Of a stretch of DNA of 64,000 nucleotides, positions 12,638 through 50,831 are shown in pieces. The position numbers were made by a program, and so were the translations under genes. Source of the DNA: a virus (lineage: Duplodnaviria > Heunggongvirae > Uroviricota > Caudoviricetes); the IMG/VR virus record IMGVR_UViG_2541047680_000004; one strand, 5' to 3'. The notes under the pieces were generated by a model. The model searched no databases. It worked only from the letters and a program-made list of their open reading frames with translations, and was not told the DNA's origin. Position 1 is the first letter of the stretch. Each line of letters begins with the position of its first letter.

Positions 12638-12683
12638 CCTGCTTCCGTATATATTTAATAAGTTACTTATTATTTATATACAG
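12638..12683. repeat. copy 1 of a 43-bp AT-rich repeat (second copy 45937..45984)
   Basis: cctgcttccgtatatatttaataagttacttattatttatata(c)ag, near-identical in both copies, each about 110 bp upstream of an operon start. Confidence 0.7.
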
Positions 12684-13929: not shown

Positions 13930-14289
13930 TCAACCTTTCTTCATTAACTCGCGTTTAATTTCATCGGTACGCATCGTGACATCGGCAGCAGTGATCGCCT
14001 CGTTCAGCTTCACGATGTCCTCGATTTCCTGCGGTGTCTTCTCCGCAAGATGGAAAATAGCAGCACGAATCACATCAGAGCGGGTGAATTTCTCGAAGCG
14101 AGGGATGAACTTCATCATCTCCAGCAGTTCGAAGTATTCGTCTTCCAGTGACATTGTGCGGCTTTTAATTTTCTCTTTGCCACGAGTCGGGCGTCCCTGT
14201 GGTCTGACTGGTTGGCGCAAAGGAGTTGTGTTCTTAGCCGGTGCATCAGGCTCTTTGCGCTTTGCTAGGTCACCCATTTTCATGGACAT
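13930..14289 (-). CDS. putative ribbon-helix-helix centromere-binding protein (ParG-like)
   Basis: Small protein translationally coupled to parA; predicted beta-strand/helix/helix segment SRTMSLEDEYFELLEMM...RSDVIRAAIFHLAEK. Confidence 0.4.
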   Translation of the reverse strand: MSMKMGDLAKRKEPDAPAKNTTPLRQPVRPQGRPTRGKEKIKSRTMSLEDEYFELLEMMKFIPRFEKFTRSDVIRAAIFHLAEKTPQEIEDIVKLNEAITAADVTMRTDEIKRELMKKG

Positions 14290-14957
14290 TATTCTTCTTC
14301 CTCCAGACTCAACAGATAATCTACAAATTCTTCAAACTCGGCTTCCGCCTTTTTGTCGCGCTCGCTACCGGTCATTTCAAAGATAGAACGACCAGACTCT
14401 TCCGCATCATCATAGACGTTGCGGTTATATAGATTGACTGGCGCAGACTCGATGCCAAACGTCTCAACAATCTCTTTAGCCGCCAGAATGCGAGACACTT
14501 GTGATGGCAAAGCCGGGCACTGGTTCATGACCGCGCGGACCTTCACTTTATCGTTTACATTACGAACATTGTCGATAATAGGATCGATGTCACGCAGAGA
14601 TTTCAAATCACGACGCTTAGGACGAAGCGGGATAATGATAACGTCGGCCATCAGCATCGCTTGTCGCTGAATTTCGGAGTCAAAGCCACCAGCATCTACC
14701 ACTACATACTCAGCTCTACCCTGAAGCGATTTTAGGTGCTTAATGATGTCATCCTGAACGTATGCAAAAGGAATCAGCTCAAGGTCTTCGTTCTGTCGAC
14801 GGTCTTCACACCAGCTCGTTGTCGTGCGCTGAATATCTATATCGGTGATATAAACCTTCTTCTTCTTTTTGACTTTCAGGCAAACGGCAATTTGCTGGGC
14901 TACGGTGGATTTGCCTGGCCCGCCCTTTGTGCCGCCAACCACAAAGATCTTGGTCAT
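14289..14957 (-). CDS. parA: ParA-family partition ATPase (short, type Ib-like)
   Basis: Deviant Walker A GGTKGGPGKST, Walker B-like VVVDAGG; 222 aa. Confidence 0.75.
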   Translation of the reverse strand: MTKIFVVGGTKGGPGKSTVAQQIAVCLKVKKKKKVYITDIDIQRTTTSWCEDRRQNEDLELIPFAYVQDDIIKHLKSLQGRAEYVVVDAGGFDSEIQRQAMLMADVIIIPLRPKRRDLKSLRDIDPIIDNVRNVNDKVKVRAVMNQCPALPSQVSRILAAKEIVETFGIESAPVNLYNRNVYDDAEESGRSIFEMTGSERDKKAEAEFEEFVDYLLSLEEEE

Positions 14958-43931: not shown

Positions 43932-45188
43932 CTATCGAGAACCACCAAGAATAACACGGTTTTTGACTGGATACCTACGATGTACTGGATAGCCCAATGC
44001 GTCTGCACTATGCTCAATGCCACCTGTCTTATCCATATCTCGTGTTCCAGGCTTGTAGATGACTTTTTCCAGTGAATCAATCAAATGCTTGCACTTCGGA
44101 TCGATATACAGCCGGATATCTCCAGATGCGGTCATCAGCATTCGGTTAACAGCATTAACACGATCCGCAATTGGCGGGTGCTTTTTCGAATAATCGACAC
44201 GTAAGAATCCCTTCTCTTTGAATATGTCGACGTCAGACTCCCCGCGAGCATGTTGGCGATAAGCACCTGCCGGATCTGGAAATATCGTTATCTGTGATTT
44301 CCAGCGCCAGAAGCGTCTCTCAAGCTCATCACAAACCTCTGCCGTGTTAGAGGAAAAGAGCACCAATTCATCAATTGCCCATAGCTCACCATTTGGCTGA
44401 GGTTGCAAAATTACGGAAGACATCGGGTCAATGTTGAAGTCCTGCCCTACCCATATAGGTAACCGAGGGTTGAACTGAAGCGGTTTTACATGCACGTTAC
44501 GATCGAACGGGTAGTAAACGCGCCCGGACATGTTCTCAAAGCTGGCCAGGTACTCCTGAGCGAACGATTTGGGGTCCATATCGTTCTTAGCAGCTTCAAT
44601 TTCCGCCGTAGGTACAAACGGAGAATCGGCAGTTACAAACTGCCAGCTCTTCCACTGTCCCTTTCTTTGCAGCTCTACGTTCTGGCCTATAGTCCACAGT
44701 TTGTGAAATTCCGAGAAGCCTTTTGGCGTACCAATGATCAGTGCACCGCCGCGTGTCGATGAAAGAGTAGGTCGTAACACCTTGTACCAAGTGTCAGCCT
44801 TCATATCCTGAAATTCATCAAGCACTACAAAATGCAACGCTACGCCGCGCAGAGTGTCAGGCTTATCAGCACCTTTGAGGGCGATCTCCGAACCGTTCTT
44901 CAACACGATTGTCATCGTGGTGTCGTTCTTTTTCCTAACCCACTTACGAGGCAGAACTTCCTGTAGATCGTCCCACAAAATCTGGCGAGCCATCTGGTAA
45001 GTAGGAGCGACATACCAGACCCTTTGCTTTTTTTCCTTTGCCGCCGCACGAATAATAGTGGAGATCGACAACCGGGATTTTCCCCAGCGTCGACCAGCAC
45101 AAACAACTTTAAATCGATGCGGAGACTGGAAGACTTTCATCTGTCCAGAATGCAGTTGCACAAGACTGAGCGAGGACGGGATTGCCAT
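43932..45188 (-). CDS. terminase large subunit
   Basis: N-terminal Walker A (CAGRRWGKSR), Walker B-like VVLDEF, C-terminal nuclease-type acidic residues. Confidence 0.8.
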   Translation of the reverse strand: MAIPSSLSLVQLHSGQMKVFQSPHRFKVVCAGRRWGKSRLSISTIIRAAAKEKKQRVWYVAPTYQMARQILWDDLQEVLPRKWVRKKNDTTMTIVLKNGSEIALKGADKPDTLRGVALHFVVLDEFQDMKADTWYKVLRPTLSSTRGGALIIGTPKGFSEFHKLWTIGQNVELQRKGQWKSWQFVTADSPFVPTAEIEAAKNDMDPKSFAQEYLASFENMSGRVYYPFDRNVHVKPLQFNPRLPIWVGQDFNIDPMSSVILQPQPNGELWAIDELVLFSSNTAEVCDELERRFWRWKSQITIFPDPAGAYRQHARGESDVDIFKEKGFLRVDYSKKHPPIADRVNAVNRMLMTASGDIRLYIDPKCKHLIDSLEKVIYKPGTRDMDKTGGIEHSADALGYPVHRRYPVKNRVILGGSR

Positions 45189-45820
45189 TATTCGTCCTCC
45201 CCTTCACTTCCATCATCTGTCGCATCAAATTCGCTTAGAGCTTCTTCTTCCAACGTCTCAAGCAATTCGTCATCGATGATTTCAGGCTCGTCGTCTTCCT
45301 GACGTAATTTCGCCACCTGGGAAGGCGTAAGCTCACCAAATACCAGATTCGGAATTTCTTCCTCGTCATTTTCCGCATGATCCATGCCCAATGCTTTGGA
45401 CGAAACTTCAAAGCATTTTGCAAGGGTATTACTGGCTCTCTGTAAGCTCTTGAGAGAATCCTCAATCGCCCCTAAAGGCTTACCCTCACGTTTGGCCGTA
45501 GTGACTTCGACCATCACCATCTGCCCCAACGCATACGCCCAGCCGTCATAACGTGTACGACGTTCTTCTATCTTTTCCGCACGGGCTTTAGCGCGAAGCT
45601 CTGCGTCAGATTTAAGAGACTCACGAACCATCTTCCCAACAGAGTCCGCGCCTTTCTCTAATCCTCGCTTTTTGAAATGTCTGGAGAGTGTTTCACGACG
45701 AATGCCGTACTCTTCCTCCAGCTTTGAGAGTGTATATTCGCCTGACGTCCATTTGGCTTCAGCTTCGGCCCACTCCGCTGGTGTCAGGCGAGTTTTTACC
45801 TCGTCTTTTTCGACCGTCAT
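45188..45820 (-). CDS. terminase small subunit
   Basis: 210 aa with N-terminal HTH-like segment (TLSKLEEEYGIRRETLSRHF) and acidic C-terminus; stop overlaps TerL start. Confidence 0.6.
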   Translation of the reverse strand: MTVEKDEVKTRLTPAEWAEAEAKWTSGEYTLSKLEEEYGIRRETLSRHFKKRGLEKGADSVGKMVRESLKSDAELRAKARAEKIEERRTRYDGWAYALGQMVMVEVTTAKREGKPLGAIEDSLKSLQRASNTLAKCFEVSSKALGMDHAENDEEEIPNLVFGELTPSQVAKLRQEDDEPEIIDDELLETLEEEALSEFDATDDGSEGEDE

Positions 45821-45860
45821 AGATCCCTCTAAAACACACAGAGCGCGTCCATGCGCTCTA

Positions 45861-45898
45861 AAACAACTTGTTTACTGCATCTGCTAACCAACTTGTTT
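45861..45898. promoter_or_regulatory. two tandem AAACA-N3-TGTTT operator-like palindromes upstream of terminase operon
   Basis: aaacaacttgttt (45861-45873) and aaccaacttgttt (45886-45898), 40-80 bp upstream of TerS start. Confidence 0.5.
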
Positions 45899-45936
45899 TC
45901 TGGGGTGTTTAATTAGGTCTGGCATGTCTTACGAAG

Positions 45937-45984
45937 CCTGCTTCCGTATATATTTAATAAGTTACTTATTATTTATATATACAG
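45937..45984. repeat. copy 2 of the 43-bp AT-rich repeat
   Basis: Near-identical to 12638..12683. Confidence 0.7.
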
Positions 45985-46015
45985 ATGCAGGTCTTTAAAT
46001 AAGCTCCCAGACCGA

Positions 46016-46282
46016 TTACATCACCAGTAACTTCGCTTTGGCTCGACCTAAAGTGGTTAACCCAAGAGTTCGGCGGTGATAGCGATTGTCACTGCGTTGG
46101 CGCGTATGCCCTTTCTCCACCAGCCCCTTTTTTATCAGAGCGCGAATTGAGAACTGGATACTTTGCTTGGTTGTCTTGTACGGCAAAACTTCAAGCAATT
46201 CGTCCAGGTCAAGTAGATGACCTCGCTCATAACCGAGATTGAGCGTTTTGATGATGTCCTTTTGTTTATCGGTTAACGTCAT
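46016..46282 (-). CDS. small winged-helix-like protein
   Basis: 88 aa, basic C-terminus; helix-turn-helix-like segment. Confidence 0.35.
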   Translation of the reverse strand: MTLTDKQKDIIKTLNLGYERGHLLDLDELLEVLPYKTTKQSIQFSIRALIKKGLVEKGHTRQRSDNRYHRRTLGLTTLGRAKAKLLVM

Positions 46283-46291
46283 GGCAAATCC

Positions 46292-47182
46292 TTATGCCGG
46301 TAAAGCAATTTCTAACGGTTTATCCAAAGGTTGTTTGTCGAATGCCAGCAGTGGCAGCGTGTCAGGCAGTCGACGGCCAAAGTCAGGGTTTCGGTACACA
46401 CCATACAACGGAGACGTAAAGCTCAGGTTGTGAATGTCCTTGAGCAGCTTCACAATGCTGGCCTCGTCCACCAGACTGTCGGCAATGTCCTGAATCGTCG
46501 TGCCACGATTCCGCCCAGCTTTTGCCAGGGAACTGTTCTTGTGGTAGTCCGCCACCAGATCACGCAGTGCACGGCGACGACGAGACTCGCTCATTGCGAA
46601 CAATTCTTTGACGATCGCCTCGTTATCACCCGGGTCGGAACGGAAATGGCGCTGGAATACACGCAGTGCACTTTCATAGCTCTTCGGTCGCTCAGGGCGG
46701 ATGAACTTAAACCCTGCTTTCATGGCGAAGGGATTGTATTTGCTCATCGAGGACTGGATCTCAATGATTGGCCGGTCATGCATCCTGCTAACCAGGTTAA
46801 TCATTCGATAAGAGACGCCTACGCCACGATACTGAGTATCCACAACTGAGCGACTGATCACCGCAAAGTTGTTATTCACGTACCGACCCCAGTACTGGTT
46901 AGCCACGGTGGTATTAGTGGTTGGTTTCAACTTAGGAAACATGCGGTGGCGAGGTGCCAGCAGTAGTTTCGGGTAAGCCATAACCACGACGCCCACCAGA
47001 CGGTCATCAAGTTCGCAGCGATAGTAAGTTGGCGCGAAAGGTTTGCCGTCTGTTTTGTAGTGAAGCGACTTAAGAGCGTGCCAGTCCTCTACAGTTCCCT
47101 TTGTGACAGTCATTCGCTCCAGAAAGTCCAGATGACGCGGAAACTCTTCAGGGCGGTAGCGTTTAATGATGATGTCCGTCAT
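46292..47182 (-). CDS. GNAT-fold acetyltransferase-like protein
   Basis: CoA-binding-type motif VVDTQYRGVGVSYRMINLV (R-G-x-G-x-S) in a 296-aa protein. Confidence 0.4.
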   Translation of the reverse strand: MTDIIIKRYRPEEFPRHLDFLERMTVTKGTVEDWHALKSLHYKTDGKPFAPTYYRCELDDRLVGVVVMAYPKLLLAPRHRMFPKLKPTTNTTVANQYWGRYVNNNFAVISRSVVDTQYRGVGVSYRMINLVSRMHDRPIIEIQSSMSKYNPFAMKAGFKFIRPERPKSYESALRVFQRHFRSDPGDNEAIVKELFAMSESRRRRALRDLVADYHKNSSLAKAGRNRGTTIQDIADSLVDEASIVKLLKDIHNLSFTSPLYGVYRNPDFGRRLPDTLPLLAFDKQPLDKPLEIALPA

Positions 47183-47844
47183 AAATGAACCTCATCATGA
47201 CTACCATTGTGATATTCCACCTTCACGCGTTCTTTGTAGTGCTTGGTGATCTGCATATCCGGGCGCAGCGCGTTCTTCAGGTCTTCGTGAGTCGTCGCCA
47301 CCATTACCGTCGCACCAACCTTTCGAGCGGCACGCTGGAGGTTAGATGCCACAACCTGAGCGGTTACACGGTCTAGAACAGCACCGAACTCGTCAGCAGC
47401 CCACACTTTAGCGCCTGACTCAATCAGTTTGGCAATCTTGAGACGATATTTCTGACCGTCTGACATTTCAGAAGGCTTGCGAACAAACAGATATGCATCG
47501 TTCAGACCAGCCATAGATAACAACCCAAGCGCATCGCTGGTCGTTTTGCCCAACTGATCGATGACGTTAACCTCATTATCGAAGGTAAAATCATCGATGG
47601 AGGCTACAGACAGCCCTTCATCCTTCATCTGTCGTTGCAACTCGCGCAGCACAACGGATTTGCCGGAACCGGATTGGCCGGTGATGTACACCACATCGCC
47701 CTGCTTCACTTCCAGCTCCAGATTGTCGTAAAGCGTCCACTCTTTTTCGTCCAGGCCAAGCCCGAACGACTCAGCGATTTCCAACGTGCGCGTGGTTTTA
47801 TTTACGCGTGTCTGAAACGATACGTTGATGATGTATTTGCTCAT
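47179..47844 (-). CDS. stand-alone ABC-type ATPase (nucleotide-binding domain only)
   Basis: Walker A GQSGSGKS, signature-like MSDGQKYR, Walker B VWAADEF, H-loop TTHED. Confidence 0.65.
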   Translation of the reverse strand: MSKYIINVSFQTRVNKTTRTLEIAESFGLGLDEKEWTLYDNLELEVKQGDVVYITGQSGSGKSVVLRELQRQMKDEGLSVASIDDFTFDNEVNVIDQLGKTTSDALGLLSMAGLNDAYLFVRKPSEMSDGQKYRLKIAKLIESGAKVWAADEFGAVLDRVTAQVVASNLQRAARKVGATVMVATTHEDLKNALRPDMQITKHYKERVKVEYHNGSHDEVHL

Positions 47845-48542
47845 ACAGCCATCTCCCCGGAAGAGATCTTCTCCGCATATGCCACAAATGCGTCTACCCC
47901 GCTTTCTCCCGTCATTTCTTCCATGTGGGCAAGCAAATCACCAACAACAATGGCAGAGCCAGCAGGAAGCGTTTTAAAGCCCAATACGTCGACAACACGT
48001 ACTTCTTCCGCTGCAACTTCACGACTGATCTCGGTGTGTTCATCCTTCTGTCGTTTAGTTTCTTCGCCAAGATCGATAACTAGCGAGTCGGTGTCCATTT
48101 CTTCTGTCATGCTGCCAACGAGAACATTCAACTCACGCTCTTCAAAGCCGAAAACCTCGATATCGTCCAGAACAAGCGACTCAAGCTCTTTCTGTAGCTT
48201 AATTGCATCGTAATCAATGCTGGCAAGTCGGTTATCTTCAAGGCGCTTCGCACGAACCTCGTCATCACTGAGATCATCGCGAACAATAACCGGTACGCGC
48301 TCAAGTCCAGCAAAAATTGCAGCCTCACGGCGGCCGTGGCCAGTAATAATTACGTCGTTCTTATCGACCGTAATTGGCTGGTCAAATCCGCGCTTTTTAA
48401 TGGCTGCGGCTAGATCTCGGATCTGCTGTTCATCATGCTTTTTGGCATTCATCTCATAGGGAATAAGATCTGCCGGGTCGCGATATACGATTTCAAACTT
48501 TTTGGTCATTACATACGCTCCTTGTAGTAGTCGACCAGCCAC
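47841..48542 (-). CDS. ParB N-terminal domain (ParB/Srx-like) protein
   Basis: ITGHGRREAA motif resembling the ParB GxxRxxA box. Confidence 0.6.
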   Translation of the reverse strand: MAGRLLQGAYVMTKKFEIVYRDPADLIPYEMNAKKHDEQQIRDLAAAIKKRGFDQPITVDKNDVIITGHGRREAAIFAGLERVPVIVRDDLSDDEVRAKRLEDNRLASIDYDAIKLQKELESLVLDDIEVFGFEERELNVLVGSMTEEMDTDSLVIDLGEETKRQKDEHTEISREVAAEEVRVVDVLGFKTLPAGSAIVVGDLLAHMEEMTGESGVDAFVAYAEKISSGEMAV

Positions 48543-49207
48543 ACCAGAGCCTCACCAGCGTTCTCCATTTCATTACCGGTGTTAATAGCCTGCTCTTTGA
48601 TGATGTTTTTTATGGTTTCTGCAACACGATCTGACGCATCGAAAGTTACTTTGAAGCGCATGGTCTGATGTTCCGCCCCCACACGTTCGGTTTTCTCTCG
48701 TTTGTCGGTATCGACAGGCTCATCACTACCACGAGACAACGCCTCCAGTGCTTCAAGGTCGATTGCCGCCTCTTTTGCTAAAACCATCGAGATTTCGTCG
48801 TCATACGGGGCGATTTCAGACAGTTGATAGTCAAGTTCTGACTGAATTTCTTCAATGAAGCGTTGCAATGCGATTTGGTCGTCTTCACCGTATCGCTCGT
48901 TGTCCACCAGTGACATCTGTTTAGCTACGACATCGCTAATTTTGCCCACAGAAAGCACTGGAACCGTTGAAATTCCTTGCTCAATAGCGGCACGCCAGCG
49001 ATGTTCGCCGCCGAGGATTTCAAAAAATCCATCTTCAAGTTCACGAGCCAAAATTGGCTTAAAAAAGCCCAATTTTTCGATAGAACCTTTCAGTTTTTCA
49101 AAATTCTGCGCACCAACCGAATTGGTGTTCCAGGTATTCGGGCGAAGGTTGGCAACATCAACCTGCAAAATCGTGATTTTTACATCCATTTTATTGCTAC
49201 AATCCAC
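48509..49207 (-). CDS. ParB N-terminal domain (ParB/Srx-like) protein
   Basis: ILGGEHRWRAA motif resembling the ParB GxxRxxA box. Confidence 0.6.
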   Translation of the reverse strand: MDCSNKMDVKITILQVDVANLRPNTWNTNSVGAQNFEKLKGSIEKLGFFKPILARELEDGFFEILGGEHRWRAAIEQGISTVPVLSVGKISDVVAKQMSLVDNERYGEDDQIALQRFIEEIQSELDYQLSEIAPYDDEISMVLAKEAAIDLEALEALSRGSDEPVDTDKREKTERVGAEHQTMRFKVTFDASDRVAETIKNIIKEQAINTGNEMENAGEALVWLVDYYKERM

Positions 49208-49271
49208 TAAGTAATCACTTACTTATTATAATAGCCAAATAACATACAAAAGGCACTAAGGAAAGAGGTTT

Positions 49272-50831
49272 ATGACTGTTCGGATTGTATCTAACGCAGT
49301 TAATGCGCTTATTTCTGGCGCAGATGACAAGGTAAAGCAACTGGTGCAACAGATGTTGAGCTACGAAGTCGAGACTGGCGACTGGAAGGGCACAAGCACA
49401 ATGTTCAACTGGAGTAAAAACTCGTTCCCTGCAGGCTTTGCCAAGCCTGTAGCGGCGAACTTGAACAAGGCGGGCATCAAATGTGTTCATATCCGCAAAG
49501 ACAAAGCCCCGGCGCTTGGAAAACCAAATCCGGCGGTTAACCCATTCCCATACAATCCTGATTATGCGTATCAGGATCAGACTGTGGAAACACTGGTTCG
49601 AGAGGGAATGATGATTGCGCAGATCGCTACTGGTGGCGGGAAATCTAACGTTGCCTGCAAAGCAGCTGCACGTATCGGTCGAATGACATTATTTTTAACA
49701 ACCCGCTCTGTTCTGATGTTTCAAATGGCCGAAAACTTCCAGAGATCCATCGACTACCGCGCCGAAAATGGCGAACCGTGGTTAAAAGACCAAAAGGTTG
49801 GAGTCATTGGCTCGGGTGAGTTCCAGGTATCACGACATATCAACGTCGCTACAGTTCAAACTCTTGCAAGTTTCCTCGAAGAACCACCACGCGATGCAAC
49901 ACCAGATAAGAAAAGCTACCACCTCAAACGTCGGGAGTTGGTGAAACGCTTCCTTTCAAGTGTCTCTCTTCTTATTCTGGAAGAGGCGCATGAGTCTTCA
50001 GGCTCAAATTTCTATGACATCGCCAGATTATGTGTGAACGCAGACTATCGTCTGGCGCTTACAGCCACGCCGTTCATGAAGGATTCGACGGAAGCCAACA
50101 TGCGCCTGATGGCGGTGGCCGGGCGAATTGAAATTAAAGTCACAGAAAAGTACCTGATTGATCGAGGCATTCTGGCAAAGCCGTACTTCCTTTATCATAA
50201 AGTTGCCTACAAGCCAGACGAGGCCAGAATCAAGGCCGAACTTGCCAACAAACACCTCAATTTTAGAGTTGGTATGAGCACCGCCTACCAAAAGGCTTAT
50301 CAGTTGGGGATCGTGTATAATTTGGGACGTAACGAGGCCATTGTTCGCGAAGCATTGCTCTATAAGCAACATTCTCTCAATTGTATGACTCTGGTTCGTC
50401 TTAAACGCCACGGGCAAATCCTGATGGAAATGATGAAAGAGTCCGGCCTTAGAGTTGACTTCATCTATGGGGAATCTAACCAGGCGACAAGGCAAGCAAA
50501 GCTGAACAGTTTAGCGTCTGGAGAAATAGATGTTTTAATAGGCTCGACTATTCTGGATGTCGGTGTTGATGTGCCAAGCGTTGGTGCGGTCATTCTTGCT
50601 GGTGGTGGGAAAGCAGAAGTTGAAATGAGGCAGCGTGTCGGTCGTGGCTTACGAGCAAAAAAAAATCAGGCAAACGTGTGTTTTATCACTGATTTCATTG
50701 ACATTAGCAACAAATACCTGTTGTCTCACTCTTATGAGCGAAAACACATCATCGACACCACACCTGGCTTTGCAGAAGGTGTATTGCCTATTGATGGAGC
50801 ATTCGATTTTGGAGTTCTGAAACGAGATTAG
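49272..50831 (+). CDS. superfamily 2 DEAH-box helicase
   Basis: Motif I ATGGGKS, motif II LILEEAHE, motif III TATP, motif VI QRVGRGLR. Confidence 0.8.
   Translation: MTVRIVSNAVNALISGADDKVKQLVQQMLSYEVETGDWKGTSTMFNWSKNSFPAGFAKPVAANLNKAGIKCVHIRKDKAPALGKPNPAVNPFPYNPDYAYQDQTVETLVREGMMIAQIATGGGKSNVACKAAARIGRMTLFLTTRSVLMFQMAENFQRSIDYRAENGEPWLKDQKVGVIGSGEFQVSRHINVATVQTLASFLEEPPRDATPDKKSYHLKRRELVKRFLSSVSLLILEEAHESSGSNFYDIARLCVNADYRLALTATPFMKDSTEANMRLMAVAGRIEIKVTEKYLIDRGILAKPYFLYHKVAYKPDEARIKAELANKHLNFRVGMSTAYQKAYQLGIVYNLGRNEAIVREALLYKQHSLNCMTLVRLKRHGQILMEMMKESGLRVDFIYGESNQATRQAKLNSLASGEIDVLIGSTILDVGVDVPSVGAVILAGGGKAEVEMRQRVGRGLRAKKNQANVCFITDFIDISNKYLLSHSYERKHIIDTTPGFAEGVLPIDGAFDFGVLKRD

Follow-up and report, generated by a model that had tools for sequence, protein, structure and literature searches.

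Mom of phage Mu is a GNAT protein that modifies adenine in DNA with Gly-tRNA (PMC13219725), and TmcA, cited in the same paper, is an ATPase-coupled GNAT enzyme that acetylates cytidine at N4. Phage ParB-like proteins without an obvious DNA-binding domain activate DNA thymine dioxygenases, are required for their activity, and co-occur with terminases (PMC13229309); GTP-binding ParB-fold proteins fused to acetyltransferases are also on record (PMC12704722). Closest to the locus studied here is a prediction: section 3.4.7 of PMC7824862, which cites Iyer et al. (2013) and takes Tenacibaculum phage pT24 as its example, proposes that ABC–GNAT proteins acylate a DNA base. We analyzed a 64,000-nt stretch of DNA from IMG/VR record IMGVR_UViG_2541047680_000004 (the window), an SSU5-like Escherichia coli phage-plasmid, with a focus on five minus-strand open reading frames (ORFs) located between a UvsW-like helicase gene and the genes for the small and large terminase subunits (TerS and TerL) and the portal. 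These ORFs encode two ParB proteins (ParB1 and ParB2), an ABC ATPase, a GNAT-fold protein, and a small winged helix-turn-helix (wHTH) protein.

We are highly confident that this five-gene module is real, conserved, and functionally coupled. By sequence comparison, the window ATPase and GNAT protein are a split form of COG2401/"MK0520", the "ABC-type ATPase fused to acetyltransferase" family, and the function that we tentatively consider most likely for the module is to acylate phage DNA before packaging, driven by ATP and assisted by the ParB proteins. The same PHROG family, phrog_11143, matches the ATPase and the GNAT protein alike, and the COG2401/MK0520 name ([quoted passage not shown]) is attached to homologs in JGI and Cyrano records. 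A profile of the 296-aa GNAT protein family retrieved 938 relatives from 1.84 billion representative proteins; many are 440–500 aa long, with the GNAT part at approximately residues 200–480 and an ABC_tran domain N-terminal to it. A profile built from these fusions retrieved more than 2,100 proteins, and those with a named source are mostly from Thermoproteota archaea. Bacterial phages have a shorter fused type, which is present on at least 595 IMG/VR contigs; examples are Rhodococcus phage Jace gp86, Leptospira phage LE4 gp15, Gordonia phage Axumite gp2, Arthrobacter phage EastWest gp75, and Nonlabens phage P12024S gp24. The GNAT parts of the split and fused forms were aligned by hhalign with 94.5% probability over the W..HY and motif A regions, and the window ATPase and the fused-family profile both match gp038 of pT24.

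In a sister lineage represented by five metagenomic viral contigs, the gene order is helicase, ParB, ParB, fused ABC–GNAT, wHTH, TerS, TerL, and portal. This is the window synteny with a fused gene and, by Rosetta-stone logic, it is evidence for joint action of the window ATPase and GNAT protein in a complex. Most relatives have the two parts in one polypeptide, from which we propose that the ATPase and the GNAT-fold protein form one enzyme; the window genes for them overlap by 4 nt (ATGA). The earlier note on this DNA had regarded a solitary ABC ATPase paired with a GNAT protein as unassignable. That judgment holds insofar as no experimentally characterized system or pathway explains the module, but the pair belongs to a widespread family, and assignment to a function reaches the level of a published prediction.

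The catalytic sites of both parts appear competent. The ATPase scores 50.1 bits against Pfam ABC_tran (5.8e-13; cutoff 25), and all canonical motifs of a solitary ABC domain, as previously read from the sequence, were located: Walker A (GQSGSGKS, residues 56–63), Q-loop (95–99), signature (MSDGQ, 127–131), Walker B (VWAADEF, 147–153), D-loop (155–158), and H-loop (TTHED, 184–188). Its PHROG matches are phrog_293 (6e-59) and the fusion family phrog_11143 (6e-24), and the hidden Markov model (HMM) of the fused family, A2, picked it up in all loci. Searches of NCBIfam and PADLOC gave generic P-loop matches only (mad3/mad8, PtuA), which do not imply a known defense system. An ABC transporter was rejected as an identity for the ATPase, as there is no permease in the module or flanking genes and its fusion partner is a GNAT domain.

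The order of secondary structure elements in the 296-aa protein corresponds to a complete GNAT core, in agreement with its initial description as GNAT-like, interrupted ahead of the final two strands by a helical insert of approximately 90 residues (∼169–254). Motif A, the acyl-CoA pyrophosphate motif, is conserved as R119-G-V-G122-V-S124 (nt 46811–46831). R119 and G122 are invariant in the family together with H41, Y42, E141, and Y260, and the R-G-x-G-x-[GS] motif plus the invariant H-Y, E, and Y are common to the split and fused forms. The protein is strongly basic (isoelectric point [pI] 9.8; family median 9.36). No specific family was found for it in NCBIfam or PADLOC, and a PDB sequence search with the GNAT-like profile produced no genuine match.

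Both ParB proteins have an N-terminal domain that exceeds the Pfam ParB_N gathering cutoff of 26.3 (ParB1, 49.9 bits, 3.3e-13; ParB2, 35.0 bits, 1.5e-8). Each contains a GxxRxxA nucleotide-binding box of the kind originally proposed: GGEHRWRAA at residues 66–74 of ParB1 (nt 48986–49012) and GHGRREAA at residues 57–64 of ParB2 (nt 48318–48341). The best PHROG matches are phrog_723 for ParB1 (2e-79) and phrog_930 for ParB2 (2e-112), and the PDB matches of the two proteins are to the N-domains of Spo0J, ParB, and Noc; in phmmer alignments, ParB1 covered residues 23–171 of Spo0J (PDB: 1vz0) and ParB2 the N-domain only. The next-best matches of ParB2, over approximately 150 residues, are the ParB domains of ParB-DNA methyltransferase fusions (phrog_498, 5e-32; PADLOC MTase_II, 2.7e-17). 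Both proteins are strongly acidic (pI 4.56 for ParB1 and 4.53 for ParB2), with net charges of −14 and −19 in the respective C-terminal halves. In these respects they resemble the ParB-like activators of phage thymine dioxygenases and, by analogy, could be nucleotide-regulated activators or loaders of the ABC–GNAT enzyme.

The ParB_N domains, and database names such as "ParB-like partition protein" and "ABC transporter", could also point to a second plasmid partition or maintenance system or to an ABC transporter moron. We regard this as barely tenable: lytic phages of Pseudomonas, Rhizobium, and Stenotrophomonas have the module, as do integrated prophages, and the module ATPase is ABC-type, not ParA-type. 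Plasmid partition was rejected on the basis of the lytic phages and because a ParA-like gene with its own small partner is located approximately 31 kb away (nt 13930–14957); the module is thus distinct from the partition pair previously noted at 13.9–15.0 kb.

The gene order helicase, ParB, ParB, ABC, GNAT, wHTH, TerS, TerL, and portal was found in 30/30 related loci, 25 from species-representative genomes and five further ones. Hosts among the 25 include Yersinia, Kluyvera, Xenorhabdus, Morganella, Halomonas, Sphingomonas, Methylocystis, Phyllobacterium, Magnetospirillum, and Paracoccus; the others are from Ectothiorhodospira, a metagenome, Pseudomonas phage nickie, Rhizobium phage RHph_N1_15, and Stenotrophomonas phage BUCTxx99. 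The block opens with ParB1 in 29 of the 30, and the divergent helicase is the conserved upstream neighbor in 29. GNAT identity among the 25 loci from species-representative genomes falls to 37–45%. With hundreds of homologs for each gene and the order retained throughout, the genes are real beyond chance, and the conservation outside this element that the earlier note had left to be checked extends to lytic phages. Among 50,697 phage records, the GNAT-like protein is present in 31, all of them cultured phages and exactly those with a TerL at least 54% identical to that of the window; the next TerL relatives (at most 45% identity, phages of 30–60 kb) do not have it. The module is a core trait of a siphovirus lineage of approximately 105–122 kb that includes both lytic phages and phage-plasmids.

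This pattern also bears on a packaging accessory complex, in which the module would help the terminase to recognize, condense, or hand over concatemers, for example as a pac-site nucleoprotein complex, and the GNAT domain would serve a structural or regulatory purpose instead of modifying DNA. Consistent with such a role, the module adjoins TerS, TerL, and portal in every one of the 30 loci and is core to the whole ∼110-kb lineage. Nevertheless, TerL relatives at 35–45% identity manage without it, bona fide phage DNA modification genes typically adjoin terminase as well (PMC13229309), and we consider a dedicated packaging function unlikely.

Small unrelated ORFs (DUF2829, N4 gp49/Sf6 gp66-like, RyR domain, and SSU5_128) lie between the core genes in different relatives. 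The insertion hot spots are the core-gene junctions, above all ABC/GNAT (L002, 1235–1489; L004, 6961–7999; L174, 3983–5898), and there are no insertions in the window. Some of these, DUF2829 and the gp49/66-like ORFs, are known anti-defense-type morons, and small molecules are common GNAT substrates, so the module might be a counter-defense system that acylates a small molecule or nucleotide to inactivate a host immune signal or an antibiotic-like effector, or to deplete a metabolite. However, strict conservation and fixed position are unlike the patchy distribution of anti-defense genes, the PADLOC matches are generic, and the ParB and terminase linkage would be unexplained. We consider counter-defense highly unlikely.

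The whole helicase-to-portal block was also seen on Alphaproteobacteria contigs of 96–118 kb (L275, L280, L282, L283, L285, and L286) from Faunimonas, Phyllobacterium, Roseospira, Magnetospirillum, Ancylobacter, and Paracoccus. These contigs look like SSU5-type phage-plasmids or single-contig phage genomes, well beyond the Enterobacteriaceae. The Halomonas sulfidaeris chromosome (L288) has the whole block with every gene fragmented, apparently a decaying integrated copy.

The neighborhoods of the fused gene in other viruses were also surveyed. With a purpose-built HMM, a ParB-like gene was detected directly upstream and in the same orientation in 55 of 71 bacterial-virus loci; Pfam ParB_N (E ≤ 1e-3) finds it in 30 of 69. 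TerL genes of several types occur within two genes downstream (Terminase_6N in 15 loci, Terminase_3 in 9, GpA in 5, and TerL_ATPase in 2), as do several small-terminase families and portals. In 45 of 80 archaeal-type loci, TerL directly precedes the fused gene and often overlaps it, which would also suit a packaging accessory. The fused gene was also found among tail genes, with ribonucleotide reductase, with DnaB, and with primase plus helicase, and on archaeal-type viral contigs a family-B DNA polymerase (PolB) is found N-terminal to ABC–GNAT in proteins of 1,260–1,310 aa (P0205, P0181; L016, L033, L054, and L055). The variety of terminase types and the replication contexts link the family to packaging and replication generally and not to one terminase family; with the ParB + ABC–GNAT pair beside four terminase Pfam families and among replication genes, a specific terminase partner is not implied. 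The identity of ABC–GNAT as a small terminase was rejected on two grounds: it is always accompanied by a distinct TerS-like gene, and in archaeal loci it comes after TerL, not before it.

The upstream ParB, the TerL adjacency, the PolB–ABC–GNAT fusions, and the primase/helicase contexts all favor a DNA-centered function, and the closeness of ParB2 to methyltransferase-fused ParBs and the strongly basic GNAT protein further favor DNA modification. Besides a packaging accessory, the other main alternative is an ATP-dependent protein acyltransferase, which late in infection would acetylate a viral or host protein such as terminase, portal, capsid, or a nucleoid protein, with the ParBs as substrates or regulators; we consider it quite unlikely.

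Several further features of these loci were observed. In Nitrososphaerota genomes (L006–L010), the fused gene follows giant baseplate-like (YQBQ) genes and precedes a gene with a staphylococcal-nuclease domain; these loci adjoin tRNA-intron endonuclease and aminoacyl-tRNA synthetase (tRNA-synt_2b) genes, an arrangement that may mark a provirus end. In Enterococcus phage 9184 (L183), an ABC gene is located between two DNA-polymerase fragments. An intein with a LAGLIDADG domain lies inside the ABC domain of the fused homolog P0164, and the TerL ORFs of L251, L268, and L273 are 749–838 aa long (usually ∼420 aa) and may hold inteins.

Accessory genes next to some fused homologs offer clues to the chemistry. 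In Rhodococcus phage Jace (L179, 4447–7212), the order is ParB, ABC–GNAT, aspartate 1-decarboxylase (PanD; Pfam, 2e-33), and a coenzyme A (CoA)-transferase of family III; the ABC–GNAT, PanD, CoA-transferase order recurs in L186 and L212, and L191 has PanD only. Genes 1–4 of Gordonia phage Axumite (L176, 1–4172) encode ParB, ABC–GNAT, a formyltransferase-domain protein, and terminase. These genes suggest supply or tailoring of an unusual acyl group, for example from beta-alanyl-CoA. Together with the conserved acyl-CoA motif and polar residues, they argue for real acyl transfer, and they are far easier to reconcile with a hypermodification pathway than with a mechanical role in packaging. No PanD, CoA-transferase, or formyltransferase gene of this kind is present in SSU5-like elements, whose enzyme would have to draw on host acyl-CoA.

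The formyltransferase-domain protein of Axumite is annotated as "tRNA-methyltransferase" and may be a tailoring step. Genes for ASCH-domain proteins lie next to the ParB/ABC–GNAT pair in L189, L224, and L259, two of them on the opposite strand. ASCH proteins include an N4-acylcytosine amidohydrolase, so these neighbors may hint at the target base, but the hint is too weak to assign one.

From the gene content, folds, motifs, split-versus-fused relationship, and conserved neighborhoods established here, we infer a virus-encoded machine that would act on phage DNA late in infection, just before packaging. ATP-driven dimerization of the ABC part could engage or clamp the DNA, and the GNAT domain would move an acyl group from acyl-CoA to the exocyclic amine of a base. 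The two acidic ParB/Srx proteins would activate or load this enzyme, and the wHTH protein would either target or regulate the system or belong functionally with the adjacent small terminase. The modification may protect packaged DNA from host nucleases.

Several points weigh against DNA acylation. Pfam searches (E ≤ 0.1) returned nothing past ParB_N in either ParB, neither a helix-turn-helix (HTH) nor a dimerization domain, and two acidic ParBs without a Pfam-recognized HTH might not bind DNA. On archaeal-type contigs there was no ParB-like ORF within 8 kb of the fused gene. The ABC domain is closer to transporter-type nucleotide-binding domains than to Rad50, SMC, or MutS, and a literature search on the DNA of RHEph10, Nickievirus, and SSU5-like phages turned up no report of its modification. 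Strict presence across the lineage and a fixed place by TerS fit a packaging role equally well.

A bolder version of the DNA acylation hypothesis is possible, although we hold it more loosely: an undescribed ATP-dependent acyl or aminoacyl modification of a DNA base, such as N4-acyl-dC or N6-acyl-dA. The donor could be beta-alanyl-CoA where PanD and CoA-transferase are present, with a further formylation step in other phages. Such a system would be core to SSU5-like phage-plasmids of the Enterobacteriaceae and their lytic relatives, and its fused form would operate in hundreds of bacterial viruses and in tailed viruses of Thermoproteota, where the gene is welded to that of TerL.

The positions of the module genes, their neighbors, and the elements in the gap before TerS are listed in Table 1. 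The five co-oriented, tightly packed genes first described upstream of terminase are all present as ORFs. The junctions along the module are TAATG, ATGA, ATGA, and then a 9-nt spacer, and the overlapping or touching junctions imply translational coupling. For ParB2, an alternative GTG start at 48542 would give 233 aa, and the ATG annotated in Cyrano corresponds to 48509; ParB1 is annotated 18 nt shorter in Cyrano. The portal gene and approximately 30 kb of head and tail genes follow TerL on the same strand as the module, which heads the late operon. In the 3.4-kb module region, the Escherichia phages Cyrano, CMS-2020a, and PhiR41_1 share 98–99.5% identity with the window, and Salmonella phage SSU5 shares 85%. 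A Yersinia pestis assembly includes a 108-kb contig with a near-copy of the element (99% identity).

Table 1. Coordinates in the window of the module, the adjoining genes, and the elements between the module and TerS
Feature	Position (nt)	Strand	Length	Remarks
UvsW-like SF2 helicase	49272..50831	+		Pfam ResIII, DEAD, Helicase_C; UvsW in Cyrano annotation
ParB1 (ParB/Srx N-domain)	49207..48509	-	232 aa	
ParB2 (second, paralogous ParB/Srx N-domain)	48509..47841	-	222 aa	Length from ATG at 48509
Soluble ABC-type ATPase	47844..47179	-	221 aa	Corresponds to N-terminal half of fused ABC–GNAT
GNAT-fold acyltransferase (predicted)	47182..46292	-	296 aa	
Small winged-helix protein	46282..46016	-	88 aa	
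Gap between module and TerS	45821..46015	.	195 bp	
Nested AT-rich palindrome	45937-45991			In 195-bp gap
Two AAACAAGTTG repeats				In 195-bp gap
Terminator-like hairpin	45860-45839			In 195-bp gap
TerS-like	45820..45188	-	210 aa	Conserved downstream partner; phrog_867 among the basis for TerS/TerL
TerL	45188..43932	-	418 aa	Pfam Terminase_6N/6C; conserved downstream partner

The 88-aa protein is basic (pI 10.2) and belongs to phrog_900. Its description as winged-helix-like is borne out by an 11-sequence profile of its family (A8), which matches the MarR-type wHTH structure 2eb7 (E = 1.9e-4) and other wHTH proteins, and the weaker matches of the protein to LexA, Sta1, and CARF-wHTH in Pfam, NCBIfam, and PADLOC agree. 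The gene was detected by HMM in 28 of the 30 loci, and in this lineage it is always located between the GNAT gene and TerS; it also follows the fused ABC–GNAT gene in L195, L208, L218, L245, and L251 (E of 1e-22 to 1e-30). HMM-detected homologs occur only in loci with this TerS type, which speaks for the packaging alternative. Because it travels with the TerS type of the lineage, the wHTH protein may serve packaging or regulation and not the enzyme.

The palindromic element between the module and TerS is a further point in favor of packaging. A 31-bp AT-rich palindrome, ATATAAATAATAAGTAACTTATTAAATATAT, is present exactly twice in the window, at 45948–45978 and 12649–12679, where no occurrence is expected by chance. 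The first copy lies between the wHTH gene and TerS and the second between divergent genes of the replication/partition region, and at both sites it sits within a common element of approximately 48 bp. A shorter core, ATAATAAGTAA, is additionally present at 49219–49229. The exact 27-mer palindrome core was found in only 22 of 80 near-identical IMG/VR loci (L093–L172). The repeated palindrome may be a shared operator, a promoter, or a packaging-related site; in a promoter/terminator scan, sites were no more frequent than chance. The GenBank records of SSU5 and Cyrano are linearized inside the wHTH–TerS gap.

Phage-plasmids of the SSU5 type are frequently found in E. coli, Klebsiella, and Salmonella and serve as carriers of resistance genes. 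A core DNA modification, if true, would shape the host range of these elements and how restriction and other defenses see them. ABC–GNAT is among the few large virus-wide families predicted to modify DNA for which the product is not yet described. The SSU5 version belongs to an E. coli/Salmonella element that is amenable to genetics, the PanD/CoA-transferase link points to a concrete candidate acyl donor, and the ParB pair is a second test case for ParB-fold proteins as activators of DNA-modifying enzymes.

Compared with ParB-DNA methyltransferase fusions (phrog_498; PADLOC MTase_II), the window shares the ParB part, matched by ParB2, and the location near terminase, but there is no methyltransferase domain and the neighboring catalytic unit is ABC–GNAT. 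TmcA/NAT10 also couples a P-loop ATPase to a GNAT domain for acylation of a nucleobase amine within structured nucleic acid, an arrangement seen in the window at the level of genes. The TmcA/NAT10 ATPase is a RecD-like helicase acting on tRNA, whereas the window ATPase is ABC-type and lies in a packaging/replication context; neither a RecD-like helicase nor a tRNA-binding domain of the TmcA/NAT10 type was found in the window proteins. Mom shows no clear sequence-level relationship to the window GNAT protein and acts alone, with Gly-tRNA and no ATPase or ParB, whereas the ABC–GNAT family retains the CoA-pyrophosphate motif and is linked to CoA-transferase in some phages.

The 5mYOX + ParB system (PMC13229309) and DpdA/DpdB share with the window a ParB/CTPase-fold protein without an obvious DNA-binding domain, encoded beside a catalytic partner and often near terminase. 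In both, the ParB-type protein (DpdB in the case of DpdA) activates the enzyme, and a similar ParB dependence may hold in the window; here, however, the partner is ABC–GNAT rather than a dioxygenase or transglycosylase, and there are two ParB paralogs. COG2401/MK0520, the function of which is itself predicted, is the nearest relative: both catalytic domains, the conserved motifs, and the virus-encoded, DNA-centered context are the same, and fused-family profiles detect the window proteins. The window version differs in that the enzyme is split into two overlapping genes with the helical insert in the GNAT part, two paralogous acidic ParBs and a wHTH protein are added, and it is a fixed-position core trait of a ∼110-kb siphovirus/phage-plasmid lineage. 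The module is a split and enlarged form of a family that had already been flagged computationally.

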